Shown here in pieces: positions 30,514 to 49,179 of a stretch of DNA of 64,000 nucleotides (its first letter is position 1; each line of letters starts with the position of its first letter). The notes under the pieces were generated by a model that was given only the letters and a program-made list of their open reading frames with translations, did no database searches and was not told the origin of the DNA. A program made the position numbers and the translations under genes. The DNA lies in IMG/VR virus record IMGVR_UViG_3300035698_032311, positions 1-64,000 of that record; one strand, written 5' to 3'. Source of the stretch: a virus.

Positions 30514-31470
30514 TTATGAAGTTGGATTGTCTGGATCTTTCATTTTAAAGTGTTCGTCACCAACGTTGAACATTTCACCTTCATCTTCTTGATTATACAC
30601 ATTTGAACTTGAAGCCTTAATTGTTGATGTTTTAGCCAATAAATCTCCACTGTCATCTCTTAAAGTTATTAATCCATCTCGTATTTTTTTAAGTAAGCTT
30701 TCAGCCCTGTCAATTTTTCTTTGACCTGTTTTGCTAATATTTATATCTGCTTCCATCCCGAATTCTTTAGCTAACAGTAAACCCGCTGCTAACAATCTAG
30801 TTATCTGCTCAAATATTTTTGGAGAAGAACTGAAGGGCAAAGAATACACAGTAGCGACTGAACTTTCAGCCTGATTTTCAGCTTCATTACGGTAATCTGA
30901 AATAATGCCGTCTGGAATATAATAGTTTTCTTCCATTCCTGCTTCTAATTTAATTTTATATAATGAAGTGTAATGTTCTGATTCACCTGCTTTAGTAGCA
31001 ATTGCATCAGTAGTTGCTGTTTCTGTTGATGTTGTTGAATTGTAATATGTCGCTTTATACCATGATGTACTCAGTCCATTTGTATCTTCAAACATCGTTC
31101 CATTCGGGCTATCTGCTTCTATATCAACAGGTGAGCCTTCAGCTAATAAATGACTATATGTACCTGATTCAGATGTTGCTCGATAAAACTTTCTTTGATT
31201 GTAAAGAATCTTAGTAATAGGTTCATTGGTAGAATGAGCATGTTTAGTAGCTGAACTAATAGTAATTGATTTTAAATCAGCCGAAACTGATGAAACTTGT
31301 TTTAATTCTGCTGTTTCATGTCCATTATAACCTAAAACGAGATAATTATTTTCTTCAAATCCTTGATTATTATCTACTGAAAGTTCAGTCTGGTTGATGT
31401 CTTCATCACCAGAAAAATATGTTTTTTCAGTAAGTACGAAGTCTTCAGTTGACGCGATTAAAATTTGCAT
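30514..31470 (-). CDS. virion structural protein (hypothetical)
   Basis: 318 aa, structural-module position. Confidence 0.3.
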   Translation of the reverse strand: MQILIASTEDFVLTEKTYFSGDEDINQTELSVDNNQGFEENNYLVLGYNGHETAELKQVSSVSADLKSITISSATKHAHSTNEPITKILYNQRKFYRATSESGTYSHLLAEGSPVDIEADSPNGTMFEDTNGLSTSWYKATYYNSTTSTETATTDAIATKAGESEHYTSLYKIKLEAGMEENYYIPDGIISDYRNEAENQAESSVATVYSLPFSSSPKIFEQITRLLAAGLLLAKEFGMEADINISKTGQRKIDRAESLLKKIRDGLITLRDDSGDLLAKTSTIKASSSNVYNQEDEGEMFNVGDEHFKMKDPDNPTS

Positions 31471-31485: not shown

Positions 31486-32229
31486 TTATTTTATTAATGT
31501 TTGTCTTGAACCGATTGTATCTACTTCAAAATGAAAATCAAATTCTAGTATTGTTGGGCTTTGTGCATTTGTTGTTCCTACCCAAGTATCTCCAACAGAA
31601 TCTCTCCATAATCTACATACTAATATTGAAGAAATAGTTTTATCTGTTCCGTCAACAACAACTTCTGGTGTCATTAAATGGGCATCATTTGTAGATTGAC
31701 AAGCGTCTGATAAATCTGCTGTTGCACTAGAAGCAAAAGTTCCATCTATATGTGCCCAAGAATAATCAAGTTTCCAAACAACAATTGCTGTTCCTTCTGC
31801 AATTCCTCTATCACCAGGTGTCCAATGTAAATGGGCTTTAATATCAGTTCCTTCTTTATAAGAATGTGGCATTTGACAAGTAAAGAAAACTTCATCATTC
31901 TCTTTAAACTTATATACTTTAAATTCTGTACCCGAACCACCCGGTTGCCAAGTTTGTATAGAAGGGTCAGAAGTACCAGCAAACTGGAATGCACCTGGAA
32001 CAATTCTTAAATCGTCCCATACTACTGCATTTCCATTAAATTCTAGTGTTCCGTCTAATTCTATTTTAGAATAATTACCTCCGTCGTAGTCGCCTAAAAA
32101 AACGTTCCCATTACTGTCTACAACAATTCTTTTGACAGGGGCAGAGTCATCATTCGCAAAAACTCTATGAGATAATGAATGGTCTGGACTATTTAATGTA
32201 TTTGAACTAGTTGGTTGTTGGATTGCCAT
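31486..32229 (-). CDS. virion structural protein, β-sandwich-like (hypothetical)
   Basis: 247 aa, structural-module position. Confidence 0.3.
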   Translation of the reverse strand: MAIQQPTSSNTLNSPDHSLSHRVFANDDSAPVKRIVVDSNGNVFLGDYDGGNYSKIELDGTLEFNGNAVVWDDLRIVPGAFQFAGTSDPSIQTWQPGGSGTEFKVYKFKENDEVFFTCQMPHSYKEGTDIKAHLHWTPGDRGIAEGTAIVVWKLDYSWAHIDGTFASSATADLSDACQSTNDAHLMTPEVVVDGTDKTISSILVCRLWRDSVGDTWVGTTNAQSPTILEFDFHFEVDTIGSRQTLIK

Positions 32230-32230: not shown

Positions 32231-35200
32231 TTATTTTGATAAAAGAGTTGTTTTACCTTTTTTAGTTGTTAATAATGTTTTTTGTTTTTTTGTCAATAAC
32301 ATTGCCTTATGACCTTTAGTAAGCAATATTGCTTTATGTGGCAATGGTGTTGTTGCAAATATATTTGAAATTATTTCAGCGAATGATATCGAATCTTTAA
32401 GCGGTAATTCGAATTCTCTGATTAATGTATCAATCAATTCAAAAGTATCACACACTTTAATTCGAATATCTTTAGAAAGTGTTTCAGCTAATGGTAATTT
32501 TTCTGAAATAACTAACTCACTGCTCTTAGCTTTTTTAAAATCTTCAGTCAATACTAAGAAATCTGTTTCTGATAATATATAATGTTTTTGGACAATTTCA
32601 GAAAGTAAAATCAATTCATCCACAGATACTGTCCAAACTTTTCCTAGTTCAATTACTTCATTTAGGGTAACAATATCTGTGAAATGTTTTTTGATTGTTG
32701 AAAATGTATTTAATGAATCTATTAAATCAAATACATCAAATTTTTGAAGTCTAATATTTTTATTTAATGAATCAGCGAAAGTCAAAGAATCAGATGGTTT
32801 CAATTCTAATGTTCTTGTTAATATATCTGAAAAACTTAGAGTGTCAGCAATATTCACGCTTCTCAATCTTTGCATTTGGTCAATAAAAGCAATACTATCA
32901 GTTTTCGACAATTCCACATTTTTAGCCAGAGTTTCTAAAAATTGTAACGAGTCTTGTTTTTTAACTGAAATGTCTTTAACTAAAGATTCAATAAGTCCAA
33001 TCGTATCAGCTAAACTAATTTCCTTAACAGCAATATGAGATAATGTATCAATAAAAGAAATAGCTTCAGTTTTTGAAAATGAGGTTAATTTAGATAAAGA
33101 ATCTGCTAAAGTTATATTATCAGATAATGCTCGCTGAAAAGCAGTAATATTTATTAAAACTTCTGTAAGACTAATTGATTCTGAAATATTCTTGCCAACA
33201 TTAAAAATAGGAATAGGACTATAGTTGTATTGGTCATATGGATATCCATACTCACCCTCTGCTCCACCGTAACTAATTGGGTGTCCTGACAAGAATAATA
33301 AACTTTCAATTTGTTGAATCCCTATTGTTTTTAAAAGTGTTTCAGATAAAACAAAACTATCATCTTTTTTCAAAGTAACTGATTTTTTCAATGCCTCAAA
33401 TAAGGTGAATGAATCTGAAAATGTTCGTTGAATTGATAAAAATGAACTCAAAATATCTGTTAACAAAAGTGTTTCATTCTTTGAAAGACCACTACCAGTT
33501 TTTAGATTTTCAGCCAATGATAAAGTTTCACTTATACTTTCTTCTACACCAGTCCATCTTTGCATTACTTCTGCGAATTGAAAACTGTCAGATAAAGGAA
33601 TATCTACACTTTTAGAAACAGCTTCAGCTATTATCAAAGTATCTGCCAATGCTCTTATATAAGCAGATATTGGCGAAATAGAATCAATCAATGAAAATGT
33701 TTCAGATAATCTTCTTTTAGTTGTAAGAATCTTATCTACAGTTTCTGATAAAGAAATTGTTTCTGTTTTTGTTAACTCAATATTTTTAGTTAAAGATTCT
33801 GTTAGTGCGATTGAATCAGTAATATTTTTACCAAAGTCCAGTAAATTCGATTCTGATATTGGCATTGTAGCAGTTTGGGCGATTAAAATATCTTTTATTA
33901 AACTTTCGGCCAGTGTGATTGAGTCAGATAAAGACTGCCCTCTTACTCTTAAAAGAGATTCTGCCAATGTAATAGCTTCTGATAATGTTCGTTCAGCAGA
34001 TATTAAACGGGCAAATGATTCTGCTAAGTTAAAAGTTTCAAAAACATTTTTGCCCAAAGATTTACTGTAAATAACTGAGAACAGGATTGAAGATGCTAAT
34101 GATTTCTTAATTGTTGATTCAGCAGACAAACTTTCAATAAGAGTTAAACTATCGGTTAACGACAAACCTTCTATGCTTTCTAAAATTGCAGAAAGTGTCA
34201 GTATTTCAGACAAAGAAAGTCCTGTATCTTTTATAATTGATTCTGCTAATGTAAGATTGTCAGTTAAAGATTGAGTAAGAATCCCACCAGTTGAAATTGA
34301 TTCTGCTAATGCAAAACTATCAGTTTTTGAAACATCAATAGCTTTCTTTAAAGCTTCACTAAATGTTAATGTGCTCGGTGTTGTAGATGTCCTGCCAATA
34401 TCTAAATATTTAAGAACTTCAGATACTGACATTGTATCTGTTAATGTTTTTGTATAAGATGTTCCTCCTGATGGTGTATAGGTGGCGTAGATGGAGTATT
34501 TATTACTATTAGTAGAAAAAGAAGCTGTGCTTGGCCAGGAATCATAAGTAGGATTTGTGTCTTTCCCACCTGCTCCACTTGAATTGTAAGCTATTCGGCC
34601 ACCTTGATCATTAAAAAATGCAGTAATATAGTAATTTTGGGCAGTAATAGGGGCATCAGAAATGTCATAATCATTAAATCCCGCAATAGCATCAGCGTTA
34701 TGTTCTGTGGTGCTTTGAGGATTTACTAACGAACTATCAGAAACCACATAAAGCCCCGCTTTACTCCTATGAGTAGACCCAGGTTCATACTTAAGACCAA
34801 CTGAAATAGTTTGAACTGTTCCTGACTCAGAAGCGGAATAATTACCACCCAATAAACCATCCTGTAAAAGAGTATTACTACTTCCAATAGTTTCATATCC
34901 AAAAGTCGTTCCCTTACTACTTAATGGATAAATCGCATTGTTCAAAAAGTCCTGCGGGATAGTAATAGTCATTATTCCCTTTTTCTCATCTATATTTCTT
35001 TCTTCCCAAGTCCAATTTCCCACACTATCAGTCATTCTCGGTCTATAAACTATTCCCATCTGTCCTGTTTTATATTCTTTACCAGTAGAACTATTCATTC
35101 TACCTTTTGTCTGATGATCAACTGCATAACTACCAACTACATTTTCGGGTCTATCTACTAAAATATTTCCCTCTAAATCTTTGACTTGAGTTTCGGTAAC

Positions 35201-35677
35201 CACTATCTCTGTTTTGAATTCTTCTGAATAGCCATTTTGATATTCTTGGGTGAGGGGTGGCTGGTAAAGAAAATCTAATCCTTTTGTTTCTATACTCATT
35301 TCTATCTTATTGGTAGTGGGTTTTTCTTTTAAAATAATTTCAAACTCGTATCCACCTTCTGGGTGAGTTTCTGAAATCGGCAAATCATAAAAATTACTTT
35401 CTATATTTCCCTTTGACCATTTGATTTTGCCTGCTTCTGTAGTAATTTGAGAAATTCCTATTTCATTATCAATCAACCTAACACTAAAATTTACTTCATT
35501 CGACCATCTCATTAATTTCACCTGTGGCAAAAAGTCATTTATCACCTTACTGTCTCCAATTTCAACATTTATTTCATCTTTTGGATCGTCTTTTGGAGTA
35601 AGTAAAAATGTATTATCTTTTATAAGATATTTATCCTTAACTTCTGAATTCAATTTTTTCAAATTTATTATTGACAT
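32231..35677 (-). CDS. large fibre-like protein: globular N-terminus, ~650 aa of Ser/Thr/Leu/Glu-rich degenerate repeats
   Basis: 1148 aa; contains SYTKTLTDTMSVSEVL junction shared with the next two genes, then dozens of x-D/E-S-x-x-L-x-E-S/T-L repeats. Confidence 0.5.
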   Translation of the reverse strand: MSIINLKKLNSEVKDKYLIKDNTFLLTPKDDPKDEINVEIGDSKVINDFLPQVKLMRWSNEVNFSVRLIDNEIGISQITTEAGKIKWSKGNIESNFYDLPISETHPEGGYEFEIILKEKPTTNKIEMSIETKGLDFLYQPPLTQEYQNGYSEEFKTEIVVTETQVKDLEGNILVDRPENVVGSYAVDHQTKGRMNSSTGKEYKTGQMGIVYRPRMTDSVGNWTWEERNIDEKKGIMTITIPQDFLNNAIYPLSSKGTTFGYETIGSSNTLLQDGLLGGNYSASESGTVQTISVGLKYEPGSTHRSKAGLYVVSDSSLVNPQSTTEHNADAIAGFNDYDISDAPITAQNYYITAFFNDQGGRIAYNSSGAGGKDTNPTYDSWPSTASFSTNSNKYSIYATYTPSGGTSYTKTLTDTMSVSEVLKYLDIGRTSTTPSTLTFSEALKKAIDVSKTDSFALAESISTGGILTQSLTDNLTLAESIIKDTGLSLSEILTLSAILESIEGLSLTDSLTLIESLSAESTIKKSLASSILFSVIYSKSLGKNVFETFNLAESFARLISAERTLSEAITLAESLLRVRGQSLSDSITLAESLIKDILIAQTATMPISESNLLDFGKNITDSIALTESLTKNIELTKTETISLSETVDKILTTKRRLSETFSLIDSISPISAYIRALADTLIIAEAVSKSVDIPLSDSFQFAEVMQRWTGVEESISETLSLAENLKTGSGLSKNETLLLTDILSSFLSIQRTFSDSFTLFEALKKSVTLKKDDSFVLSETLLKTIGIQQIESLLFLSGHPISYGGAEGEYGYPYDQYNYSPIPIFNVGKNISESISLTEVLINITAFQRALSDNITLADSLSKLTSFSKTEAISFIDTLSHIAVKEISLADTIGLIESLVKDISVKKQDSLQFLETLAKNVELSKTDSIAFIDQMQRLRSVNIADTLSFSDILTRTLELKPSDSLTFADSLNKNIRLQKFDVFDLIDSLNTFSTIKKHFTDIVTLNEVIELGKVWTVSVDELILLSEIVQKHYILSETDFLVLTEDFKKAKSSELVISEKLPLAETLSKDIRIKVCDTFELIDTLIREFELPLKDSISFAEIISNIFATTPLPHKAILLTKGHKAMLLTKKQKTLLTTKKGKTTLLSK

Positions 35678-35682
35678 ACAAT

Positions 35683-37566
35683 TTAGGGCGATGAAATTCT
35701 CAAGAAATATCTAATAATTGGATAAAGAGAAGGTACTTCATAACTTATTGATTCAGATAAATTCAATGTTTCAGAAAGAATCTTGCCGATTGCAACTCTG
35801 TCAGCTTCAGTTAAAGTAAATGTGTCTGAAAGAGTTTGACTGTGTGTCAATACACTAGTTAGAGCATCTGATAAAGCAACTGCTTCAGTCTGAGGAAGCT
35901 TAAATGTCTTTTTCAAAAGGGATGTTAATAATAAACTTTCTGTTTTTTTAATAATATTGTCTTTCTTTTCTGTTTCAGATATAGTTAAATTTTCAGACTT
36001 TTTGATATCAGTATCTTTCCTTTCTGCTTCAGATATAATCAAACTTTCAGATTTTTTGATATCACTATCTTTCTTTTCTGTTTCAGAGATAGTTAAATTT
36101 TCAGATTTTTTGATATCGCTATCTTTCCTTTCTGTTTCAGAGATAGTTAAATTTTCAGATTTTTTGATATCGCTATCTTTCCTTTCTGTTTCAGAGATAG
36201 TTAAATTTTCAGATTTTTTGATATCGCTATCTTTTCTTAATATACTAACTAAAGTTAAGATTTCAGTAAGTGTTTTTTCGGCACTAATTTCTTCTTTAAT
36301 AGAATCAGTAAGAGTCATAACATGCGGAGAAGTGGGATAATAATCAACATCAATATAATTAAGTTTAGAACTAATATTTAATGAATCCGTTAAAGTCTTT
36401 GTATAAGCAGTGCCAGTCGACGATTCCCATGCTAAATTACCCCCATCCTGAAATCTTCCATCTGTACCCGTCCCATCAATATAAACAAAAGCATAACCAT
36501 CATCAGGCAAATTAGTATGAGCACTAAGTATTATCGGATGTCTTGCAAAAATAAGAGTATTATTTCCCTGATTATTTGTGTCATCATCAGTCAAGCCAGC
36601 TTGAGTTTGCCAACCACCGAGCGGAGTTCTTTCACGATACTGGATATTGTAAATAGCAGTGTTCACCCCCCAACCAAGCCCTGTCCAAACAACGGAAACA
36701 TTATCATCATTATCCAATGCAATAGAGGGATAATCTTGATGATAATCTACATTAGTAACTGCTTCTGGATCATTCCATCCACCACTGTCTTCTGACCTAT
36801 ATCTAATTTGTTGTTTATCTGTATAATCTCCGACACCAATAGTAACCCAAACTATATGAGGATAATTGTTTGAATCAACAGCAATACAACAAGATGACTG
36901 AAACTCTAGATTTCCAGCGTCAGTAATATCTACTGTAACTGCCCAAGTATCCTCACTCACATCCTTAAATCTATACATTATATCTATTGTGAGTAATGCA
37001 CTTCCACCATACCATGCAACATGCACATCATCATTAGAATCAATAGCTATCGAAGGATAATTCTGAACATACTCATTATCAAAAACTGTTTCAGTATCAG
37101 CCCAAGTTCCTTCACTTGTATCTTTAAATCGGTACTTAATATCCGAATCTGACCAAACAACATGTACATCGTCATTCGCATCAACTGCTATTGCCGATTC
37201 TTCTTCCGACCCTGTACCTATGCTTTCTGTATCTCCCCACCCAACCCCTTTTGTCCTTTTACAGTATTGTAAAGTGCCTTGAGCACTTGGGTGATTACTC
37301 CAAGTAGCATGTAAATTATCACTTGAATCAATAGCCAATGCTGGTTTCCAAGCCCCCGCAGGACTCTCATAGGTCGTTACTTGTTCCTCTGTCCAATTCT
37401 CTCCACTATCTATGGAATAAGACACATAAATCTGATAATCATCGCTTCCATCCTGTCTTCTATAAATACACCAAAGTTTTCCATTACTTTCTCGAACCAA
37501 TTTTCTACTAGATACTGGCCAAAACCCATCACCTGATACACTTGCTTTTATTAAATAATCTGACAT
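35683..37566 (-). CDS. fibre-like protein: BNR/Asp-box β-propeller head plus tandem-repeat tail
   Basis: 627 aa; Asp-box SIDSGENW and repeated …D..H..W blades; junction AYTKTLTDSLNIS; 6 copies of KDSDIKKSENLTISETER. Confidence 0.55.
   Translation of the reverse strand: MSDYLIKASVSGDGFWPVSSRKLVRESNGKLWCIYRRQDGSDDYQIYVSYSIDSGENWTEEQVTTYESPAGAWKPALAIDSSDNLHATWSNHPSAQGTLQYCKRTKGVGWGDTESIGTGSEEESAIAVDANDDVHVVWSDSDIKYRFKDTSEGTWADTETVFDNEYVQNYPSIAIDSNDDVHVAWYGGSALLTIDIMYRFKDVSEDTWAVTVDITDAGNLEFQSSCCIAVDSNNYPHIVWVTIGVGDYTDKQQIRYRSEDSGGWNDPEAVTNVDYHQDYPSIALDNDDNVSVVWTGLGWGVNTAIYNIQYRERTPLGGWQTQAGLTDDDTNNQGNNTLIFARHPIILSAHTNLPDDGYAFVYIDGTGTDGRFQDGGNLAWESSTGTAYTKTLTDSLNISSKLNYIDVDYYPTSPHVMTLTDSIKEEISAEKTLTEILTLVSILRKDSDIKKSENLTISETERKDSDIKKSENLTISETERKDSDIKKSENLTISETEKKDSDIKKSESLIISEAERKDTDIKKSENLTISETEKKDNIIKKTESLLLTSLLKKTFKLPQTEAVALSDALTSVLTHSQTLSDTFTLTEADRVAIGKILSETLNLSESISYEVPSLYPIIRYFLRISSP
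35945..36265. repeat. six near-perfect tandem 54-bp repeats inside the BNR-fibre gene
   Basis: tatcgctatctttcctttctgtttcagagatagttaaattttcagattttttga repeated head-to-tail. Confidence 0.8.
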
Positions 37567-37673
37567 AAACTATGTTTTGTTAATCTGATGACTACAACAG
37601 ATAACTTCTATAACTATATTTTTACTAAAAAATCAATTGTTTTTTAATTAATAATAACTTTATTGAATTTTTG

Positions 37674-39188
37674 TTATGGTCCAATATGTAAAATATGCCT
37701 GATTACTACTGGCATTTCATAAGTATGATCTTCTGAAATCGACATTGTATCAGTAAATATTTTAGCAACATGAAGTCTTTGACTTTCAGTTAATGTAAAT
37801 GCATCAGAAAGCGTGGCTTGTCGCCCGACAACACTAGACAAGCTTTCAACAAAAGTCAATGCTTCAGTCGTTTTCAGCCCAAAAAGTTTTACTAAAGATT
37901 CTGTAAATGCTAATGAATCCGAAGACATTTTTCCAAAAATAGAACCAGTAGATTCAGAAACAGACATTGTTTCACTTAATGATTTTGAAAAAGCATTAAC
38001 TTTTTGAACAGATTCAGATATTGATAATGCTTCATTTTTCAAAAGAGTTGGACTTTTTTTCAAACTGTCAGAAACTGATAAAGTTTCTGTTAATGTTTTA
38101 GTGTAAGCAACACCTGCACTATAATCCTCTTCCACCCCCCAAGCTACTAAAGCATCTGTTTCAGAATAATAATTTACCTTTCTCCAATCATTTGAACGAA
38201 CAGTTGTAGATATTCTTGGTTCATCTATTGAGCCAATAAACCATCTTGCTGTGTTGTCGTTTTGGTGTCCTATGCGAGTTACCTGATTTGCGTCATATAT
38301 ATTTCCACTCCCAGTCCCTGCCGAACCTCCGTCGTTATCAAGAACATTGTCAATATATAAGTTTATTGTCGTTCCGTCCCATGTCATTTCTATCTTGTGC
38401 CAATTACCGTCATCTATTACATCGTCTCCTACTTGATATTTATAGGTATCACTTGCTCCTGCATAGATGGCAACATAAATTGTGCCGTCTATATATTTCC
38501 ACATTGTAAAACTACGAGAGCCAATCCCACCATTCCACTCTCCAATAATTCCACCATAGTCTCCCACCATTGTTGTTTTTATCCACACACTTAGGGTTAT
38601 ATGGTTTACATCAATATCTGCAATCTCGTTATAGTCGTCTCCGTCATAATCAACAGATTTGGCTATCTTTCCTGCGGAGTTGTAGGTTGGGTTTCCTGAC
38701 TCACCTGTTACATCATTATTGTTGGAGGTTGCATCATCTAAATCTGTATAAGCTGCACCAGTTAAATGTTGAACCATTTTAAAATTACTATCCCAAACTT
38801 CTGTCCTACTCCCACTATCTGCTACATAAGTTGTATTAGCGTCTTGAGCATCGTCATAATAAAAATAAAGTATATTTTGTTCTCCTGTTGCCGAAGCATA
38901 TAAAACCCAATCTGATTTAGAAATCCATAACTCTGCCGTTTCATTAGCATCATCCCACTTTTCTATCTCTCCATAGATTTGAGTAGTTCCATCTCCTAAA
39001 GTAATAGCAATTTTATTTCTGTTCTCATCACTTTGGAGTTCATCAAAGATACTTGAAATATCTGTGCTTCCAGTTCCAGAAGATGTGCTTATATTTAACC
39101 TAACTGGTAAATGCGTTTGATTAGAATCAATGTTTGTGTCTGATACTGTTATTGACCTTCTGTGTGTATATGTCCCTAACCAAGCCAT
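37674..39188 (-). CDS. fibre-like protein: LamG/concanavalin-like lectin head plus repeat tail
   Basis: 504 aa; …WHKIEMTWDGTTINLYIDNV… is LamG_3-like; junction AYTKTLTETLSVSDSL; C-terminus parallels the 35683 gene. Confidence 0.5.
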   Translation of the reverse strand: MAWLGTYTHRRSITVSDTNIDSNQTHLPVRLNISTSSGTGSTDISSIFDELQSDENRNKIAITLGDGTTQIYGEIEKWDDANETAELWISKSDWVLYASATGEQNILYFYYDDAQDANTTYVADSGSRTEVWDSNFKMVQHLTGAAYTDLDDATSNNNDVTGESGNPTYNSAGKIAKSVDYDGDDYNEIADIDVNHITLSVWIKTTMVGDYGGIIGEWNGGIGSRSFTMWKYIDGTIYVAIYAGASDTYKYQVGDDVIDDGNWHKIEMTWDGTTINLYIDNVLDNDGGSAGTGSGNIYDANQVTRIGHQNDNTARWFIGSIDEPRISTTVRSNDWRKVNYYSETDALVAWGVEEDYSAGVAYTKTLTETLSVSDSLKKSPTLLKNEALSISESVQKVNAFSKSLSETMSVSESTGSIFGKMSSDSLAFTESLVKLFGLKTTEALTFVESLSSVVGRQATLSDAFTLTESQRLHVAKIFTDTMSISEDHTYEMPVVIRHILHIGP

Positions 39189-39288: not shown

Positions 39289-39897
39289 TCATATGTTTTT
39301 GAGATTAATAGTTTTAAAATGAGAGCATTGATAATCTGTCGGACAAAAAATTTTAAAGCCCACTTCTTTAGCTTTTTTTGAAAAACTTAAATCTAAACCC
39401 ATTGTTTCAATACCATTTTCATCAAATATTCTTTCAAAGGGTGCTTTTATTTTTTCAAGCACATTTCTTTTTATTAAAATACAACCTGTCCCGCCTGCGT
39501 CAATTTCAATAAGGTCATTTTCAGGCAAATCTTTAATTGGTTGCCAGTAACCATTAGCATCAGTTTTATAAACATTCCAGCCAACTTTGTATTGATAAAT
39601 CAGTGTTGGACAAATAATAACATCTTTATTTAATAAAATGAGCTCAAATGGATTTTGAGAAGGCACAACATCTTCATCAATCATAATCAACCACTCATTA
39701 TTTGATTTTAAGAATTTTTGAACAATATGATTGCGTGCATGAGCACATGGCTTTTCTTCAGTAAAATTGACAAAAATTTTATATGGCGAGTTTTTGCACC
39801 ATTTAATCAGTTTAAGTGCAAGTTCTTTTCTGATACTACCTTGAGTCAAGATAGCTAAATATACCTCTGAATCATTTTTTAACTTGTTTTCTGCCAT
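39289..39897 (-). CDS. GT-A fold glycosyltransferase (DxD)
   Basis: IMIDEDVVP DxD motif; paralog of 40005 and 58675 genes (…GTGCILIK…). Confidence 0.45.
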   Translation of the reverse strand: MAENKLKNDSEVYLAILTQGSIRKELALKLIKWCKNSPYKIFVNFTEEKPCAHARNHIVQKFLKSNNEWLIMIDEDVVPSQNPFELILLNKDVIICPTLIYQYKVGWNVYKTDANGYWQPIKDLPENDLIEIDAGGTGCILIKRNVLEKIKAPFERIFDENGIETMGLDLSFSKKAKEVGFKIFCPTDYQCSHFKTINLKNI

Positions 39898-40004
39898 TTC
39901 TGTGTGATTTTTATAAGTAGTTAATGAATAACACCTCTTTGATATAAAAAACTCCCAGAGCATCATCTAGATATGTCTGAGAGAGCTCTAATAATAACTT
40001 TAGA

Positions 40005-40700
40005 TTAATTTCTTTTATAAAGTTCCTTGTCTCGAGCTCTTTTGTTTAAAAACCCCCTTAAGCCGTTATTCCATTTCTTTTTAGCTTCAGGTGATAAGTG
40101 GGCAATATAATAATTTTCATCAATAACTTGGTTGCTTCCAATATGTCCGATTTTAAGAGACGAATCTACCCAAATTTTATAGCCCAATTTAAGAGCATTT
40201 GAACACCAAGTAAGGTCACTACTGAACAAATGGTCTTTATAATAATAATAAGGCGGCTTCATTTTCTTAAACACGTCCATCTTAATCAGCATACAGGACA
40301 TTCCTGTCGCGTCTACACTCACGAGTCCGTGGTAATAAGCCATTGTATTATAAGATTTTTCTATATCGTTCCATTTGAAAATACAGGGATAATGCGGTTT
40401 TATTCTTCGAAAAGCAAGTGCATTTACAATATTTAATTTATGTTCTAATAATCTTTTTAATGCATCGGGAGGAAAAGTCATGTCAACATCAATAAAAAAC
40501 AGATAGTCACTATGACTTTTCAATGCTTCCGATACTATATAATTTCGAGCAAATGGTAATTGTACACCCAGCGTTGAAATAAACCGGACATCAGTATTTG
40601 GGGGATATTCAAGGGCAATCAGACACTGCACAAATTTTGTATGAAGAAATTCTGATGCACTCGGCATTCCAACTGCTATTTTTAATCTTTTTGACTCCAT
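40005..40700 (-). CDS. GT-A fold glycosyltransferase (DxD), paralog
   Basis: FFIDVDMTFPP…ATGMSCMLIK…IGHIG. Confidence 0.45.
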   Translation of the reverse strand: MESKRLKIAVGMPSASEFLHTKFVQCLIALEYPPNTDVRFISTLGVQLPFARNYIVSEALKSHSDYLFFIDVDMTFPPDALKRLLEHKLNIVNALAFRRIKPHYPCIFKWNDIEKSYNTMAYYHGLVSVDATGMSCMLIKMDVFKKMKPPYYYYKDHLFSSDLTWCSNALKLGYKIWVDSSLKIGHIGSNQVIDENYYIAHLSPEAKKKWNNGLRGFLNKRARDKELYKRN

Positions 40701-40962
40701 AGTCTTAAGACATACTGCCTCTCTACCTGAAGTTCTCGAACTTTCGGAGAGGCCTTGGTTCACGAACTTCAGTATAGCATGTCAAGGATTCATGTTTATT
40801 TTGGTTATCGATATCAACAACCAAATTTAAAGCTAGCTTGATCCGCAGGTCACTGTCCAAGTAATTGTTAGGGTCATTCTGTTACTTTTATAACCTCTTT
40901 GTTGAGGCGAGTAAATATTTCTATTTACTTCTCTATGTCGCCATAGAGTTCAGACTTTCTCA

Positions 40963-41682
40963 TTATCCTATATTTAAAGAATCAACACAGTTAGAAGAAC
41001 TTTCTTTAATCTCATTTTCTTTTAATCGTATTACCTGATATCCATTCTTCTTTAATAGCTGAGTATATTTTTTATCTCTCTCAATCACATTAGGTAAAGA
41101 ATGCCAGTATTTTCCATCACAATATATTGCAAGATTATATTTGGGTACAAAGAAATCAACTATAGTAGAAAATATTAAATATTGTTTTTTATAAACTATC
41201 TTTCGTGTCTTAAGTTCAGCTTCAATTATCCTCTCGATAAGTGTGTCTTTTTTTATCCAACTTTTAGATAAAATTTTCATCATTCGTTCCTTTTCAACAG
41301 GATTACTCCATCTTTTCTGTTGACCTGCTTTCATTCTTTCTACAACTTCTTCTGATATTTTTCTGCCTATTAATTTTTTCTTAATTTTATTAATCGTTTC
41401 TTGAGAATAAATTCCTTTTTTATTCTTATTCCAGGCTACTATTATTCCTTTAAGACCTTTATTCCATGGTATCATTCTTTTTTTAAACTCGCTTTTTGGA
41501 TGATTTCCTTTCTTAAATCCGTAAGTATTACCTTTCATAAATTTTCTCATCTTCTCTTTTCGTTCAGTTGACCAAGGACTATTATAATTTCTTCTCATTT
41601 TTTTGATTGATTCTTTTGTATGATGTGAATCTTTCTTCATATATAGGATACTCTCCGTCAAGTCGTTACACCTTCCGCACAA
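40963..41682 (-). CDS. homing-endonuclease-like protein: NUMOD3 repeats plus C-terminal Vsr/DUF559-like nuclease
   Basis: GNHPKSEFKKRMIPWNKG and IYSQETINKIKKKLIGRKISEE are NUMOD3-like; C-terminal …YCDGKYWHS…RD…LLKKNGYQVIRL is a Vsr-fold PD-(D/E)xK domain. Confidence 0.5.
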   Translation of the reverse strand: MCGRCNDLTESILYMKKDSHHTKESIKKMRRNYNSPWSTERKEKMRKFMKGNTYGFKKGNHPKSEFKKRMIPWNKGLKGIIVAWNKNKKGIYSQETINKIKKKLIGRKISEEVVERMKAGQQKRWSNPVEKERMMKILSKSWIKKDTLIERIIEAELKTRKIVYKKQYLIFSTIVDFFVPKYNLAIYCDGKYWHSLPNVIERDKKYTQLLKKNGYQVIRLKENEIKESSSNCVDSLNIG

Positions 41683-42218
41683 GCGGCTTGGCTCGGGATT
41701 GTCTTGAATATTTTATCAAGGTTTTCCCCGAATTTGAAGAGTTTTTCATTTAGGATTACTCCTAAAGCGGACAAATTTTTATCCGCAGCCCCTTTGTTAA
41801 TTACTGGGAATGTTGCTCCACAGAGCATTGTTCCTGCACCAGAACTATTGAAAACACCCGCTTCAGTTATTGCTCCTGTTCCATCTGCAGCTGCCCATGT
41901 AGCTTTATAAACCACATCATTATCATCTGCACCAGAAAGTTGATCTGGGTAATTAGCAGATAATGCATTTCTATCTAGTTGACTACCCAATGTAGTCGCA
42001 CCAGTAGTAAAAGCAGTAGCAGAAGTTCCAATCGCCATCCATCCCATTCCAGCTTCATCAGGAGAAACATCTAATTGATCTGCAACATGAGCATCTCCTG
42101 TATCCATAAATGTATTTTCCTGTATGTGAAAATCTTTCAATCGACCCTCTTCGTCGTATATTTCCAGCTTAATTTTTCCCTTCAATGGAACTAATTCATG
42201 AACTTTTTTCTTTTTCAT
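41658..42218 (-). CDS. higher-GC Ala/Gly/Thr-rich protein, possible decoration/structural protein
   Basis: 186 aa; composition differs from neighbours. Confidence 0.25.
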   Translation of the reverse strand: MKKKKVHELVPLKGKIKLEIYDEEGRLKDFHIQENTFMDTGDAHVADQLDVSPDEAGMGWMAIGTSATAFTTGATTLGSQLDRNALSANYPDQLSGADDNDVVYKATWAAADGTGAITEAGVFNSSGAGTMLCGATFPVINKGAADKNLSALGVILNEKLFKFGENLDKIFKTIPSQAACAEGVTT

Positions 42219-42828: not shown

Positions 42829-43485
42829 TTAAACATCATTTTGTAAACTTTTCTTAATATATTTAATTTTAAATGCTTGGTATATTTTTAATAATACAAA
42901 AGGTACTATTTTTTTATTTAAATGAGTTTTGTCTTTTGAACTTTTGATAGGAAAATTAGAATATTTAGATGACACACTACCATTTTTATTTGAAACCATT
43001 GAAAATATATTGATAAACGGTATATTATTTTCTTTACAAAACATATCAAGTTTCTCATTAAATTCTTTTACTATTTGAACTCGAACAACCAATGGAGCAA
43101 AATATGGCAAATTCCAGAGATCTGGAGTATCCTGAGAGGGAGGAATACTATAAATGCAAATCTTAAAACCCATCTTTTCTATTTCTTTTATCATCTTTCC
43201 GTAATTCGCAATAGTATTGTCAATCAATATGCTAATAGGTATCTTATCTCTTTTATGAATGTTATAAATATGAAGCCCACAATCTATTTCACCAAAACTT
43301 AATAAGACTATATCATTTATTTTATCTATATTTTCTTCTTTTAATATTTTTAACACTCTCAATCTTGAACTGTGTTCACTTTCACCAAGTTTAAAAGCTG
43401 TCGCTGCCCAATTCTTATGAACAATAAAGTTATCATTTTCTTTAAAAGAAAAAATATGACTATCTCCGATTGCATGAATTTTCAT
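42829..43485 (-). CDS. SGNH/GDSL hydrolase (esterase/O-acetyl-modifying)
   Basis: N-terminal IHAIGDSH (GDSx block I). Confidence 0.55.
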   Translation of the reverse strand: MKIHAIGDSHIFSFKENDNFIVHKNWAATAFKLGESEHSSRLRVLKILKEENIDKINDIVLLSFGEIDCGLHIYNIHKRDKIPISILIDNTIANYGKMIKEIEKMGFKICIYSIPPSQDTPDLWNLPYFAPLVVRVQIVKEFNEKLDMFCKENNIPFINIFSMVSNKNGSVSSKYSNFPIKSSKDKTHLNKKIVPFVLLKIYQAFKIKYIKKSLQNDV

Positions 43486-44189
43486 TGTTTTTGAAAAACT
43501 AAAAGAGGATTTATATCTGAAAGTCTAATCATTTTTAATAATTTTAACTTCGCTAACCGTGCATGCAAATGAAGAAAAGCAAGATAAAATGTTTCTTTTT
43601 GATGTGTTTCTTGAAAAATTTCAAAATTTGGCAAAACTAAAAATCTCCATTTTATTACAGCTTGGCTTCTTTTAAAACTTGAAGTAGTCAATCTTATAAT
43701 TATTTTTTCTTGTGCTTTAAAACTTTTAATAATTACTTTTGTAAGACCATGAAGAATAACATCATCAGTGTCCCAATAATCAACAATAAACAATCCATCT
43801 TTTCGTAAATGTCGTGAAACTATTTTAAAAAATTGTGGAATATCACGTTTTTTTAGATATCCAAGTACATCAAAAAGACAAACACATGCGTCAAATTTTT
43901 GGGAACTCTTAAAGTTTAAAATATCATCACATTTAAATTTTAAATTGCTATTTTTTATTTTCTTTTGTGCAATTTTAATCATGTCAGGAGATTTATCAAT
44001 TCCAAACACAGTATATCCTTGTTGAGCTAAAATTGACGAATGTCGCCCTGTTCCACAACCAATATCAAGAACTTTTTTTATATTATGTTCTTTAAAAATT
44101 GTATCTAAAAAATCAACTTCAGCTTTATAGTCTTTTCTTTGGTATGTAATATCATAGATATTAGCATACTTTTCTTTAAAAACACTCAT
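43482..44189 (-). CDS. class I SAM-dependent methyltransferase
   Basis: VLDIGCGTGRHS motif I. Confidence 0.7.
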   Translation of the reverse strand: MSVFKEKYANIYDITYQRKDYKAEVDFLDTIFKEHNIKKVLDIGCGTGRHSSILAQQGYTVFGIDKSPDMIKIAQKKIKNSNLKFKCDDILNFKSSQKFDACVCLFDVLGYLKKRDIPQFFKIVSRHLRKDGLFIVDYWDTDDVILHGLTKVIIKSFKAQEKIIIRLTTSSFKRSQAVIKWRFLVLPNFEIFQETHQKETFYLAFLHLHARLAKLKLLKMIRLSDINPLLVFQKQ

Positions 44190-45262
44190 AATGTTTCTTT
44201 TATTACTTTAATAATTTCATCTTGTTCCTTTTCTGTTAAATCAGGAAATGTTGGCAAATATATTCCTTCATTCATTAATCGTTCAGAAACTGGAAAATTA
44301 CCGTCTTGTTTCAAATATGGCTGTAAATGCATCGGAATAAACCCCCTGCGAGTTTCAATTCCATTTTCTTTTAATGCTTTTTCAATCTCATTCCTTTTTG
44401 GTGTTTTAATAAAGTAATACCAGCTAACGTTTTTAGCAAACTTTTTTTCTACTGGAATTTCAACTAATCCTTCTAAATATTTATCGTAGTATTTAGCAAT
44501 TTTATTTCTTTTTTCATGCAATTCATCCCATCTTTCAAGTTGTCCAAGTCCAATTGCTGCATTCAACGAAGACAATCTTAAATTCCACCCAATTTTTTCG
44601 TGCCAGAAATGACCTACTTTGGGAAAATAATAAGCTCGAATCCCCCTTAATTCTGATGCTAAAGCATCATCATTCGTTGTAATTGCTCCACCTTCACCAC
44701 ATGTGATAATTTTGTTAGCATAAAACGAAAAACAATTACAAATACCAAAAGAACCGACTGTTTTCCCACCATACTCAGCACCATGAGCTTCAGCTGCATC
44801 TTCAACTACTTTTATATTTTTTCCTTTAATTGCTTCAAATATTTTGCTCATATTTACTGGCTGACCGTAAATATGTACAGGTATTATCACTTTAGTTCTT
44901 TCAGTGATTTTTTCTTTTATTAAATCAGGGTTAATATTACAAGTATCCCATTCTGCATCTACAAAAATAGGTTTAGCCCCACATTCAATAACTGCATTTG
45001 CAGTTGCGACCATAGTAAAATCAGGAACAATAACTTCATTATCACTTCTAATATTCAATGCCCATAAAGCTAAAAATAAAGCAGAACTTCCACTATTTAC
45101 TGCAATACAGTGTTTTACACCAATTCTCTCAGCGAATTTTTCTTCAAAAAGTTTCGTAAACCCTGCTATTGAAGAAATTTTACATTCATCAAGAGCTTTA
45201 TTGACCCATTTTTTCTCAACTTCTGTAATACTTGGACGAGATACGGGTATTTTATATTTCAT
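44186..45262 (-). CDS. DegT/DnrJ/EryC1/StrS-family sugar aminotransferase (PLP)
   Basis: …AVNSGSSALFLAL…GDEVIVPDFTMVATANAVIECGAKPIFVD… full-length match to the family. Confidence 0.8.
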   Translation of the reverse strand: MKYKIPVSRPSITEVEKKWVNKALDECKISSIAGFTKLFEEKFAERIGVKHCIAVNSGSSALFLALWALNIRSDNEVIVPDFTMVATANAVIECGAKPIFVDAEWDTCNINPDLIKEKITERTKVIIPVHIYGQPVNMSKIFEAIKGKNIKVVEDAAEAHGAEYGGKTVGSFGICNCFSFYANKIITCGEGGAITTNDDALASELRGIRAYYFPKVGHFWHEKIGWNLRLSSLNAAIGLGQLERWDELHEKRNKIAKYYDKYLEGLVEIPVEKKFAKNVSWYYFIKTPKRNEIEKALKENGIETRRGFIPMHLQPYLKQDGNFPVSERLMNEGIYLPTFPDLTEKEQDEIIKVIKETL

Positions 45263-45288
45263 ATATTTAAATATTTATATTAATAAGT

Positions 45289-46783: not shown

Positions 46784-46787
46784 TTTT

Positions 46788-47144
46788 TTATATTTTTTTT
46801 ACAAGAAAAATAGCATTTTGATTTTTACCATAAAGATCATCAACTTTAAAGGCTCTTTCAAAACCAATATCTAAATAAAAATGAATTGCCTCGATATTTG
46901 TAGCAATCGTATGAAGGTACACACTTTTATAACTCGGATATTTTTTTAACATTTCATAAAATAGTTTTGTTCCATAACCTTTTCTTTGAAATTTTACTGT
47001 TACATAAATATTATGAACTTCTAAGACTTTCCCTCCCGGAAAAGTATGCCAAGATATGAGTCCAATTTCTTCCTCTTCTTCTGTTTTAAAACTGATATTA
47101 TTGCCGTTCTGTTTGATTATTATTTCTTGATCAGGAACACTCAT
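46788..47144 (-). CDS. GNAT N-acetyltransferase
   Basis: QRKGYGTKLFYEML … FYLDIGFE acetyl-CoA binding motifs. Confidence 0.6.
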   Translation of the reverse strand: MSVPDQEIIIKQNGNNISFKTEEEEEIGLISWHTFPGGKVLEVHNIYVTVKFQRKGYGTKLFYEMLKKYPSYKSVYLHTIATNIEAIHFYLDIGFERAFKVDDLYGKNQNAIFLVKKI

Positions 47145-47148
47145 ATTT

Positions 47149-48754: not shown

Positions 48755-48784
48755 ATTAAAAGTGTTTCATATGATTTAAAATTG

Positions 48785-49177: not shown

Positions 49178-49179
49178 AT

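Follow-up and report, generated by a model that had tools for sequence, protein, structure and literature searches.

An uncultivated tailed phage carries three consecutive, co-directional minus-strand genes for proteins of 504, 627 and 1148 aa (A504, B627 and C1148), in which different N-terminal domains are joined through a shared junction to a common repeat stalk. We give an even chance to the reading that these proteins are late-expressed accessory adhesins on the virion surface, with a shared stalk and recombining heads. What speaks for a role as virion fibres is the position of the genes and their synteny. Within the window (the whole stretch of DNA analysed, 64,000 nucleotides), the fibre genes sit between a Mu-like major capsid gene (60133-61104) and the genes for the adaptor, Neck1, tail tube, tape measure and Dit, all on one strand with gaps of 1-107 nt. 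The phage has no cultured relative, the sole match in the phage database being one metagenomic podovirus.

A common junction and an 18-residue repeat stalk

The initial annotation took the three proteins for paralogues with differing heads, a common junction and repeat tails, and sequence comparison bears this out. The motif YTKTLT occurs once in each protein (at aa 362 of A504, 388 of B627 and 408 of C1148), always in the context (A/S)YTKTLT(D/E)(S/T)(L/M)(S/N)(V/I)S. The junctions, all on the minus strand, are AYTKTLTETLSVS in A504 (aa 361-373; 38070-38108), AYTKTLTDSLNIS in B627 (aa 387-399; 36370-36408) and SYTKTLTDTMSVS in C1148 (aa 407-419; 34421-34459). That of A504 coincides with the first repeat unit, and the junction in general would be a conserved first repeat. 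By BLASTP the tails are homologous (A504 against B627, 2e-20; B627 against C1148, 6e-20; A504 against C1148, 4e-11), and no head-to-head alignment was found among the three.

All three tails repeat with a period of 18 aa, and the unit has the core (S/T)-(D/E)-(S/T)-h-(S/T)-h-(S/A)-(E/D)-(S/T)-L-x-K, where h is hydrophobic. The period-2 signal of Ser/Thr reaches z = 6.4 (A504), 4.9 (B627) and 10.0 (C1148) in the tails, as against 0.3-1.2 in the heads (0.3 in the C1148 head), and at the α-helical angle the tails show a depletion of Ser/Thr. Each 18-residue unit would form one long β-strand plus a turn. Since Ser/Thr occupy every second position, one face of the resulting sheet would be almost purely hydroxyl, and the opposite face would carry Leu, Ile or Phe flanked by Asp/Glu. 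A first full-length structure prediction run gave low-confidence helices. AlphaFold2 modelling of the A504 tail (aa 362-504; 37677-38105, minus strand) from a 56-sequence alignment gave seven strands of 15-18 residues with a best pLDDT of 75; the five models span pLDDT 43-75 and are only moderately reliable. The tails of all three proteins are predicted to be ordered, amphipathic repeats of β type. This kind of 18-residue β-strand shaft has no Pfam family and no solved homologue. The stalk of C1148 (32234-34456, minus strand), with units of 18-20 aa and Ser/Thr at each second position, gave a weak match to phrog_12240. To call the tails Ser/Thr-rich was an overstatement, as Ser+Thr make up 26-29% of them (17-19% of the heads) alongside 17-25% Leu+Ile, and there is no mucin-like tract. 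In a simple meander, the loss of one unit would reverse strand direction, which counts against the accessory-adhesin reading.

Head domains, head exchange and repeat number

Each protein would begin with a β-domain of carbohydrate-recognition type: DUF2341 plus LamG in A504, a BNR-type propeller in B627 and two β-sandwiches in C1148. A504 (37674-39188, minus strand) consists of a DUF2341-like N-domain and a LamG_3 head (together aa 1-361), the junction, 7-8 repeats of 18 aa and a C-terminal HTYEMPVVIRHILHIGP peptide. The LamG_3-like head proposed for one of the proteins is the jelly roll at aa 183-334 (38187-38642, minus strand), which matches Pfam PF13385 (Laminin_G_3) with 53.5 bits, above the cut-off of 27.6 (E = 3.8e-14). 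DUF2341 and LamG_3 are both present in a relative (P0243), and a homologue with 38% identity over 354 aa is encoded at locus L037.

B627 (35683-37566, minus strand) has a BNR/sialidase-type head (aa 1-387), the junction, ~13 repeat units, among them a tandem 54-bp array, and an A504-like C-terminal peptide. The head (36406-37566, minus strand) is a putative BNR-type propeller, possibly six-bladed. This fold assignment follows from its 165 homologues, many of which carry BNR_2, BNR_4 or SBBP domains and some the NCBI name exo-alpha-sialidase; many are stand-alone proteins of ~400 aa from bacterial and archaeal genome bins. The earlier description as an Asp-box β-propeller was overstated: BNR_2 itself scores 27.3 bits, below its cut-off of 31.4, and only one canonical SxDxGxxW Asp-box is present (SIDSGENW, aa 51). 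A relaxed blade motif, aIDsnDdvHvvW, matches three times (aa 127, 174 and 229), and two more blade-like stretches, AIDSSDNLHATW and ALDNDDNVSVVW, were picked out by eye and are unscored.

C1148 (32231-35677, minus strand) comprises a two-β-sandwich N-domain (aa 1-407), the junction, ~40 repeat units (aa 408 to ~1110) and a basic K-x-x-L-L-T-K C-terminus. No part of it, head included, matches Pfam, in agreement with its initial description as an unassigned β-domain. The head (34457-35677, minus strand) belongs to an uncharacterised all-β domain family with the conserved motifs RPENVVGSYAVY, GKxxHIYRP and SIYATYT. The two-β-sandwich resembles a carbohydrate-binding module, and its fold matches, the best of them a capsid cement protein, include gp29, the tail spike of Bxb1, and a baseplate protein of phi812; none was to a catalytic fold. 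The strongly conserved motifs might belong to the active site of an enzyme and not to a lectin site, a point against the adhesin reading. Relatives of this domain (the C-head) occur on at least 263 viral contigs.

An exhaustive profile search found the tail repeat in 894 protein clusters. Among the best 149 of these, most have their non-repeat part at the N-terminus, with a length of at least 150 aa in 110, the repeats reach the C-terminus in 101, and the heads include only 11 of A type, 7 of C type and 4 of B type. Heads of the tail family recognised by Pfam are LamG_3, DUF2341, CBM_4_9, H_lectin, Ig_Rha78A_N and 3-keto-disaccharide hydrolase; these matches are of lectin or carbohydrate-binding types. 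Modular swapping of heads over a common tail had been proposed and is borne out by this diversity and by two close comparisons. One protein (P0246) joins a different head to a closely similar A504-type tail, the last 27 residues differing at 3 positions, and a contig near-identical to the window (L087) has a mosaic recombination break within the LamG head. The motif TKTLTETLSIS is likewise present behind different heads in P0244 and P0246. The stalk type is matched inside a genome and different between genomes, as seen in the window, in L084 (69% identity, 118 aa) and, by eye, in L037. Stalk type and C-terminal peptide would be common within a genome, with heads exchanged through recombination.

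Repeat number varies as well. Six tandem 54-bp units, encoding (R/K)KDSDIKKSENLTISETE, are present in B627 (aa 445-552; 35911-36234, minus strand; TRF 5.2 copies, 92% matches). They had been reported as six exact repeats; the number holds, but exact identity is limited to units 2 and 3, from which unit 1 differs at 1 nt, unit 5 at 4, unit 4 at 7 and unit 6 at 26. The length variation predicted from the DNA repeats was found in the otherwise near-identical contig, where a five-unit allele (L087/P0121) encodes a 609-aa protein with exactly one unit fewer. Gain and loss of units would tune the reach of the stalk.

Neighbouring glycosyltransferases and the predicted hydroxyl face of the stalk

Directly upstream of A504 is a gene for an Anp1-like GT-A glycosyltransferase (39289-39966; phrog_34859, 1.8e-8), preceded by a second GT-A gene of Anp1/GT2-like type (40005-40763; Anp1, 5.1e-6; Glycos_transf_2, 1.4e-3; phrog_12406 glycosyltransferase, 1.1e-10). 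A ~17-kb island (42829-59331) of sugar-nucleotide, glycosyltransferase, methyltransferase and sulfotransferase genes, APS kinase included, separates the major capsid gene from the Gp80-like gene described below; all three features are on the minus strand. The tails are not next to GT-D-like genes, as had been stated: the GT-D-like gene (46049-46783) is ~7 kb upstream of the fibre genes, and the adjoining genes are the two of GT-A type.

With genes for glycosyltransferases and sugar nucleotides placed among or close to the structural genes, surface proteins are plausible substrates, and glycosylation of the stalk is plausible. The upstream GT-A enzymes would O-glycosylate the Ser/Thr face in the cytoplasm with sugars from the island, and the coat would protect, stiffen or mask the fibres; this would add to the adhesin model and not replace it. 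We regard it as possible but on balance doubtful. Homologues of the adjacent glycosyltransferase are encoded upstream of fibre genes in L001 (39% identity) and L066, an Anp1-like gene (a faint match) directly precedes P0246 in L088, and window-type sugar genes occur within 10 kb in 28 of the 65 related loci having at least 5 kb of upstream sequence; nearly all of these genes share the strand, and most lie upstream. However, L037 keeps the upstream glycosyltransferases, yet its stalk is built of basic 13-aa ERDAKVTGK repeats with few hydroxyl residues. The regular display of Ser/Thr on one sheet face would suit such modification, and pure poly-Ser/Thr replaces the stalk in 10 of 72 dereplicated C-head proteins, L084 having five consecutive poly-Ser/Thr-stalk proteins. 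Poly-Ser/Thr stalks are not significantly associated with sugar genes (7/10 versus 18/44 loci, p = 0.16), though, and the window stalks are structured amphipathic β-repeats, unlike a disordered tract of mucin type. Alternatively, the targets of the island might be the capsid or tail tube, which are modified in mycobacteriophages, or glycans of the host envelope.

There are precedents for phage- and virus-encoded glycosylation. The glycosylation of Mimivirus fibrils is encoded by the virus. In mycobacteriophages, phage-encoded glycosyltransferases place glycans at the C-terminal ends of the subunits of capsid and tail tube, according to the citation of Freeman et al. (2023, Cell Host Microbe) in PMC12619734. 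The window is like these systems in having glycosyltransferase and sugar-nucleotide genes within or beside structural genes; it differs from the mycobacteriophages in its far larger island (~17 kb), with APS kinase and sulfotransferase, and in that its modification is putative. The analogy with serine-rich repeat glycoproteins of Gram-positive bacteria, drawn initially, fails on those of their defining features that were checked. An N-terminal binding region followed by Ser/Thr-containing repeats, a GT-D-like gene and, in the relatives L036 and L084, long poly-Ser/Thr tracts are common to both. However, reading of the three sequences found no signal peptide at the N-termini and no LPXTG anchor, the stalk is an ordered β-strand repeat and not Ser-dominated low complexity, and the enzymes adjacent to it are not the GT-D-like one. 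AIDA-I and TibA, which are O-heptosylated autotransporter adhesins, have β-repeats of ~19 residues and, directly upstream, a glycosyltransferase gene of their own. As a functional analogy only, they share with the window β-strand units of ~18-19 residues with Ser/Thr, a glycosyltransferase gene immediately upstream of the adhesin gene and a modification that would be cytoplasmic. The window differs in its glycosyltransferase family, its phage structural block, the lack of an autotransporter β-barrel and the putative status of its glycosylation.

Gene neighbourhood and possible placement on the virion

The gene order around the fibre genes on the minus strand begins with a gene for a Gp80-like small fibre protein (41658-42218; phrog_5417, 1.4e-13; phrog_4176 "tail fiber protein", 1.8e-8; Pfam Gp80, 0.0098). 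An HNH/homing endonuclease gene (40963-41682; PHROG endonuclease matches), reaching by its coordinates into the 3' end of the Gp80-like gene, is the upstream border of a block inserted between the Gp80-like and C-head genes. Downstream of C1148 are a gene for a 247-aa orphan (31486-32229), co-transcribed by position, for which Pfam, PHROG, PDB and the phage database gave no match and 86 loci no relative, and the gene for a Mu gp36-like head-tail adaptor (30514-31470; Phage_Mu_Gp36, 3.4e-5; phrog_195 head-tail adaptor), where the neck and tail genes begin. This neighbourhood is conserved, a Gp80-like gene being the usual direct upstream neighbour of C-head genes in other phages: it precedes the C-head gene by 7-90 nt in 13 loci, the adaptor gene comes 0-5 kb after the C-head gene in 12, and LamG-type heads adjoin or are fused with the C-head in 15.

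A504, B627 and P0246 have a C-terminal peptide in common that C1148 lacks. The shared C-terminal part of A504 and B627 would be the element that attaches them, either to the stalk of C1148, which is long, or to the particle close to where head and neck meet. C1148 itself may be anchored through its conserved N-terminal domain and the Gp80-like protein. The C-head was at or near the N-terminus in 120 of 120 matches inspected and is kept across phages whose stalks differ, and 22 of the 72 dereplicated C-head proteins have no stalk; therefore the stalk cannot be a universal anchor. These features, the tight coupling to the Gp80-like gene and the genome-matched stalk types would also suit a branched fibre in which C1148 is the backbone, docked on the particle by its N-domain along with the Gp80-like protein and extending a 740-aa stalk outward, and A504 and B627 join that stalk through β-sheet pairing of homologous repeats to give one fibre with three heads. 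Single-chain fusions of C-head and LamG, C-head first, occur in several loci and fit this arrangement. We nevertheless think it unlikely, as the peptide missing from C1148 suggests a separate docking site, and that peptide is present in only 11 of the best 149 tail-family members.

Less likely still is that the three proteins are the primary, tail-mounted receptor-binding fibres. The complete podovirus MW202647.1 has its C-head homologue as the final structural gene ahead of the lysis genes (endolysin, holin), the usual tail-fibre slot, and in L001 and L008 the C-head gene comes after an SU10-type adaptor and a Gp80-like gene, Gp80 being named in Pfam for fibre I of podophage GP4; the Bxb1 and phi812 fold matches point the same way. 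The position of the C-head gene varies between phages, before the adaptor, after it or last ahead of the lysis genes, which counts against the accessory-adhesin reading in that head, neck and tail placements are all admissible. In the siphovirus of the window, however, the adaptor comes only after the fibre genes, distal-tail genes form a block of their own behind the tape-measure gene (Dit, 24526-25296; a 1154-aa protein, 16650-20114), and the best C-head fold match is a capsid cement protein. A non-structural role, as enzymes or soluble lectins, for instance a depolymerase of sialidase type that lysis sets free or that works with the sugar island on host glycans inside the cell, is improbable: exo-alpha-sialidase names, stand-alone B-head homologues and near-invariant C-head motifs would suit it, but the genes keep their position within structural blocks of viral contigs, long repeat stalks are unexpected for soluble enzymes and the C-head matched no catalytic fold.

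Among the closest parallels to the accessory-adhesin reading are the modular receptor-binding fibres and tail spikes of phages, in which domains are swapped between a variable binding part and a conserved anchor. Common to both are the late structural block, globular domains of sugar-recognition type on a repetitive shaft and head exchange between close genomes (P0246, the L087 mosaic), and the Bxb1 gp29 and phi812 baseplate matches fit in with this. The differences are a shaft with an all-Ser/Thr face, a gene position between capsid and adaptor genes and outside the distal-tail block, and the polarity of A504 and B627. Their variable head is N-terminal and their shared part C-terminal, the reverse of the usual order, which counts against the adhesin-fibre model. 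T4 Hoc-type Ig-like proteins are capsid decorations of a carbohydrate-binding kind. Cyanophage A4 gp25 is a trimeric auxiliary cement protein of 201 aa that is anchored by its N-terminal part (PDB 9jwb chain Z), for whose carbohydrate-binding module its authors propose a glycan-binding role (PMC12002296). Like the window genes, that of gp25 adjoins head genes, and a glycan-binding role is proposed for both. Sequence identity is 11%, however, gp25 lacks a stalk, and gp25 is capsid-attached, whereas for the window proteins virion presence, attaching end and oligomeric state are inferred.

As accessory adhesins, the three proteins would bind host-envelope or matrix glycans reversibly and so raise adsorption. 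Judged by their sequences, the tail and its heads are a large uncharacterised family of apparently swappable, putative phage surface adhesins, often encoded near sugar-making genes.

Common repeat tail and differing heads

Three co-directional minus-strand genes, separated by intergenic gaps of 107 nt and 5 nt, together occupy 32231-39188 and encode the fibre-like proteins A504 (37674-39188, 504 aa), B627 (35683-37566, 627 aa) and C1148 (32231-35677, 1148 aa). The motif YTKTLT was found once per protein (at aa 362, 388 and 408, respectively), in the sequence context given for it by the initial annotation. From this junction onward the tails are homologous in BLASTP (A504 versus B627, 2e-20; B627 versus C1148, 6e-20; A504 versus C1148, 4e-11), whereas the N-terminal parts gave no BLASTP alignment to one another. 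Thus, the earlier view of a shared tail under differing heads holds. Autocorrelation gave a tail repeat period of 18 residues in all three proteins, and a register table of 42 units yielded the core (S/T)-(D/E)-(S/T)-h-(S/T)-h-(S/A)-(E/D)-(S/T)-L-x-K, where h is hydrophobic. The junction is the first and most conserved repeat unit, nothing more.

The tails are composed of ordered 18-aa units with 14-17% Ser, 11-12% Thr and 12-15% Leu. They had been described as Ser/Thr-rich, but the 26-29% Ser+Thr is accompanied by 17-25% Leu+Ile, and the tails are not mucin-like. Six exact 54-bp repeats had also been reported in B627 (35911-36234). Six units are indeed present, of which just two, units 2 and 3, match exactly; compared with these, there are 1 nt difference in unit 1, 7 in unit 4, 4 in unit 5 and 26 in unit 6. 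TRF described this tandem array as 5.2 copies with 92% matches.

Within the tails, Ser and Thr recur with a period of two (z at 180 degrees of 6.4, 4.9 and 10.0, compared to 0.3-1.2 in the heads). This signal is depleted at the α-helical angle, and the hydrophobic residues likewise show a period of two. The Ser/Thr period therefore indicates strands with almost nothing but Ser/Thr on one face; the pattern on the other face is acid-h-h-acid-L, which is pseudo-palindromic. One β-strand per repeat unit is well supported. A first AlphaFold2 run returned, at low confidence, a helical C1148 tail, which was rejected in favour of β on the basis of the period-2 analysis and a tail-specific model. A Kyte-Doolittle hydrophobic-moment peak at 110-120 degrees could also be read as helix and was attributed to the six-residue spacing of Asp/Glu/Lys.

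The ends of the proteins differ. C1148 terminates in short basic repeats of the form K-x-x-L-L-T-K (32234-32340, minus), and short basic C-terminal repeats, e.g., K-x-T-S-x-W-T, occur in those homologues of its N-terminal all-β domain (aa 1-407; C-head) that have stalks of 18-20-aa repeats (related proteins P0001, P0015 and P0021 and locus L056). A504 and B627 end in YEMP…IRHILHIGP, unlike the basic ends of the C-head proteins.

Of the two shorter proteins, A504 has a secure head assignment: aa 183-334 match Laminin_G_3 (PF13385, concanavalin A-like lectin/glucanase) at 53.5 bits, well above the cut-off of 27.6 (E = 3.8e-14), in agreement with the LamG head proposed for it. For B627, an Asp-box β-propeller had been proposed. 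Repeated canonical Asp-boxes are not what we observed: B627 has a single SxDxGxxW motif, at aa 51, and scores 27.3 bits on Pfam BNR_2, under the gathering cut-off of 31.4. A relaxed blade-like motif, aIDsnDdvHvvW, has three matches in B627, with two similar stretches visible by eye. The B627 head has 165 homologues, which often carry BNR_2, BNR_4 or SBBP domains; those at 30-40% identity have precomputed BNR_2, BNR_4, BNR or SBBP hits, and the name exo-alpha-sialidase has been given to some. Given the BNR_2, BNR_4 and SBBP domains of these homologues, it is therefore reasonable to regard the B627 head as a putative BNR-type propeller.

Exchange of heads and variation of the stalk

With the A504 tail as sole query, a word-indexed search gave no homologue, so an exhaustive HMM search with an A504/B627 tail profile was needed; it returned 894 cluster representatives at E ≤ 1e-3, 168 of them at ≤ 1e-10. 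The core observation is real and reaches well beyond the window. In the best 149 of the 894 members, the non-repeat part is N-terminal (median 244 aa), and in 101 of these 149 the repeats reach to within 60 aa of the C-terminus. Only a few of the best 149 carry heads of the window types (A-type, 11; C-type, 7; B-type, 4). A Pfam scan of 75 tail-family proteins found few with any match, the domains being LamG_3, DUF2341, CBM_4_9, H_lectin, Ig_Rha78A_N, 3-keto-disaccharide hydrolase and Gly_rich_2.

Two members bear on the suggestion that heads are swapped over a common tail. The 297-aa protein P0246 has a head unlike that of A504 on a closely similar A504-type tail, with three differing positions in the final 27 residues (…HTYEMPTVIRHILHIGP), and P0244 has a further different head, joined via AITKTLTETLSISE. 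At the level of sequence, these two proteins are direct evidence of head exchange on a common tail, as had been suggested. The gene preceding P0246 has a faint Anp1-like match.

This arrangement differs from that of phage tail fibres, which have a conserved N-terminal anchor and a variable C-terminal binding domain. In A504 and B627 the order is reversed, with variable N-terminal heads and a common C-terminal part, and only C1148 has a conserved N-terminal domain.

Stalks also vary between genomes. Among 72 dereplicated C-head proteins, 22 are stalkless, 10 have a stalk in which Ser+Thr reaches 70% or more over 60 aa, and the others have different repeats or domains. Within one genome, stalk type is matched. 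All three window proteins have the 18-aa type. In the related locus L084, the poly-Ser/Thr stalk of a C-head protein recurs in a LamG protein, as does a C-terminal domain of ~125 aa (aligned stretch 69% identical over 118 aa), and in L037 13-aa ERDAKVTGK-type repeats were seen by eye in the C-head protein and the LamG protein alike. L084 has a row of five consecutive genes (8686-17191, plus strand; 413, 630, 967, 485 and 312 aa) with differing N-terminal domains on long poly-Ser/Thr stalks; the battery layout is that of the window, but the L084 stalk is mucin-like. In L037 (9980-14232, plus strand), basic repeats ERDAKVTGKxxxN replace the 18-aa type in the C-head and DUF2341/LamG proteins; the latter is 38% identical to the A504 head, and at its end it has PDPKTPTT repeats with a Trp-rich tip.

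Variation on a finer scale is seen in L087, an ENA contig of 5432 bp that is near-identical to window 32975-38460: 3.2 kb on one side contain a single mismatch, and 2.1 kb on the other contain none. Its B627 homologue has 609 aa instead of 627 and is without exactly one of three near-identical 54-bp units; the exact 627-aa form is also recorded from a JGI contig. The length variation predicted from the repeats is thus supported. Assembly collapse is unlikely as the cause of the five-unit L087 allele because k = 141 should suffice to resolve a periodic tract of ~160 bp.

The first 208 nt of L087, within the LamG domain of A504, are only 82% identical to the window. The 38 nucleotide differences are mostly silent, changing the amino acid in 12 of 69 codons. 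The mosaic boundary is sharp (window about 38252/38253, inside the LamG domain), followed by identity for 2.1 kb downstream, and appears to mark a recombination break. A diversity-generating retroelement was considered for this segment and set aside in favour of ordinary recombination, given 12 amino-acid changes in 69 codons for 38 nucleotide changes.

Genomic setting and the C-head family

The window is part of a large siphovirus. On the minus strand, in transcription order, a protease/scaffold gene (61541-63913) is followed by genes for a small head protein (61110-61520) and a Mu-like major capsid protein (60133-61104). A sugar island of ~17 kb (42829-59331) lies between the major capsid and neck genes. 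It is followed by a gene for a Gp80-like small fibre protein (41658-42218), an HNH endonuclease gene and two GT-A/Anp1-like glycosyltransferase genes (39289-39966 and 40005-40763) directly upstream of A504. Downstream of C1148 are a 247-aa ORF (31486-32229, minus), a Mu gp36-like adaptor gene (30514-31470, minus) and then Neck1, tail tube, tape-measure and Dit genes; a 1154-aa protein (16650-20114) is encoded in a separate distal-tail block after Dit. The three fibre genes therefore lie in the late structural block, on the same strand and between the major capsid and the adaptor, tail tube and tape-measure genes, a placement repeated in related contigs. Searches of Pfam, PHROGs, the PDB, the phage collection and the 86 related loci gave nothing for the 247-aa protein. 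A promoter and terminator scan gave nothing beyond chance.

Several other features were noted. Within the tail block, two metallophosphoesterase/exonuclease-like genes (22164-23171 and 23332-24366, minus) stand straight after Dit, an unusual position for such genes. The 360-aa product of 14952-16034 has a PG_binding_1 domain and is probably a lysin; some homologues are found in archaeal bins, but this domain points to a bacterial rather than an archaeal host. The plus strand encodes an SPFH/Band-7 protein (6870-7661), a ThiF-family protein (11778-12452) and 22 tRNAs (1738-4265: Gln x2, Met, Ser x2, Thr, Leu x3, Glu x2, Lys x2, Ile x2, Arg x2, Cys, Phe, Tyr, Val and Asn). Many of these tRNAs serve the predominant residues of the fibre stalks (Ser, Thr, Leu, Ile, Glu and Lys). 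Large tRNA arrays are typical of large AT-rich phages.

The C-head has at least 264 homologues in metagenomes, and a relative is present on at least 263 IMG/VR contigs; groundwater and sediment samples are the source of many related contigs. A phage collection of 50,697 records gave a single match, itself metagenomic. The domain begins at or near the protein N-terminus in 120 of 120 inspected matches and has the near-invariant motifs RPENVVGSYAVY, GKxxHIYRP and SIYATYT. PDB sequence searches with the C-head profile, A504, B627, the Gp80-like protein and the 247-aa protein returned nothing useful.

We compared the C-head neighbourhood in 86 loci. A Gp80-like gene lies 7-90 nt 5' of the C-head gene in 13 of them, a LamG/DUF2341 head adjoins the C-head or shares one chain with it in 15, and downstream there is an adaptor gene at 0-5 kb in 12 and a tail tube gene at 1.7-5.8 kb in 13. 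The Gp80-like protein of the window scores 16.7 bits on Pfam Gp80 (PF23140, podophage GP4 fibre I), below the cut-off of 27, and matches phrog_5417 (1.4e-13) and phrog_4176, "tail fiber protein" (1.8e-8); the neighbour gene in L001 has a weak precomputed Gp80 match.

The Gp80-like and C-head genes of the window are separated by the HNH gene, both GT-A genes, A504 and B627. The HNH/homing endonuclease gene (40963-41682, minus) overlaps the 3' end of the Gp80-like gene and forms the upstream edge of this block. Since the Gp80-like and C-head genes are normally adjacent, an HNH gene at the block edge suggests that the block was inserted, and it looks like an insertion into a normally tight gene pair. 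The C-head gene precedes the adaptor gene in the window and L007 and follows it in L001 and L008. In MW202647.1, a complete podovirus, it closes the structural genes, ahead of the lysis genes. Because this position varies, the proteins may sit on the head, neck or tail.

Possible stalk glycosylation and the probable role of the fibres

The sugar island encodes an APS-kinase/sulfotransferase fusion (49180-50316), a second sulfotransferase (51674-52522), a methyltransferase/cytidylyltransferase fusion (50683-51672), an FkbM methyltransferase, a 760-aa GT1, a GDP-mannose-dehydratase-like epimerase, a DegT aminotransferase, a GT-D-like protein and an SGNH hydrolase. To our knowledge, sulfation genes are rare in phages and unusual in a phage structural region.

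There is a possibility that the stalks are glycosylated by the phage's own enzymes. Glycosyltransferase genes adjoin the fibre genes in the window and in relatives, window-type sugar genes are found in 28 of 65 related loci, and some relatives have poly-Ser/Thr stalks. However, the association between poly-Ser/Thr stalk and sugar genes is not significant (p = 0.16), and the L037 stalk is Ser/Thr-poor despite upstream glycosyltransferases. The initial annotation had GT-D-like genes adjoining the fibres; the adjacent genes are instead GT-A/Anp1-like, and the GT-D-like gene (DUF1792; 34.1 bits against a cut-off of 27, E = 2.2e-8) is 7 kb off, at 46049-46783.

The comparison systems differ in how well they fit. 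Virion glycosylation by phage-encoded enzymes is known from mycobacteriophages (Freeman et al. 2023, as cited in PMC12619734), where glycosyltransferase genes adjoin structural genes as they do in the window. The analogy with serine-rich repeat glycoproteins, by contrast, fails for A504, B627 and C1148 on the export, anchor and low-complexity features checked. Such glycoproteins have an N-terminal signal peptide for accessory-Sec export, a C-terminal LPXTG anchor and dedicated glycosyltransferases that include a GT-D (DUF1792) enzyme; of the last, the window has the GT-D-like gene 7 kb off. Read by eye, none of the three has a signal peptide or LPXTG motif, and their N-termini (MAWLGTYTHRR, MSDYLIKASVS and MSIINLKKLNS) are without a hydrophobic leader. 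Serine-rich repeat glycoproteins have Ser-dominated low-complexity tracts, which are absent here and present in relatives L036 and L084, whereas the window tails are ordered 18-aa units.

In its full form, phage-run surface glyco-engineering, in which an island-made sugar is transferred by GT-A enzymes to Ser/Thr stalks to give glycan-coated, lectin-headed fibres, seems rather unlikely to us. The product of the ~17-kb island would be an unusual sugar, methylated, aminated and possibly sulfated, and the fibre-adjacent GT-A enzymes would link it to the stalks, either on the ordered Ser/Thr face of the β-repeats or, in relatives, on poly-Ser/Thr. If true, this would be a bacteriophage counterpart of the glycosylated fibrils of Mimivirus, with a new β-repeat fold as acceptor.

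Glycosylation aside, A504, B627 and C1148 fit, as far as sequence can tell, a set of putative virion-surface accessory adhesins with exchangeable heads of sugar-recognition type. The shared part of the set would be the β-repeat stalk and C-terminal peptide. Modular phage adhesin fibres are known; new here are two building modules without a Pfam family, solved structure or cultured-phage representative. If these proteins are virion adhesins, they would define two large unstudied modules, the C-head (at least 263 viral contigs) and the 18-residue β-strand stalk (894 clusters), that let uncultivated phages display exchangeable sugar-binding heads. The stalk may be a new fibre fold, and the heads are candidates for new glycan-binding reagents. 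The fibres would then provide a concrete case of host or matrix recognition diversifying through head swapping, repeat-unit gain and loss and within-genome stalk matching, in fibres linked to large phage-encoded glycan pathways with sulfation genes.
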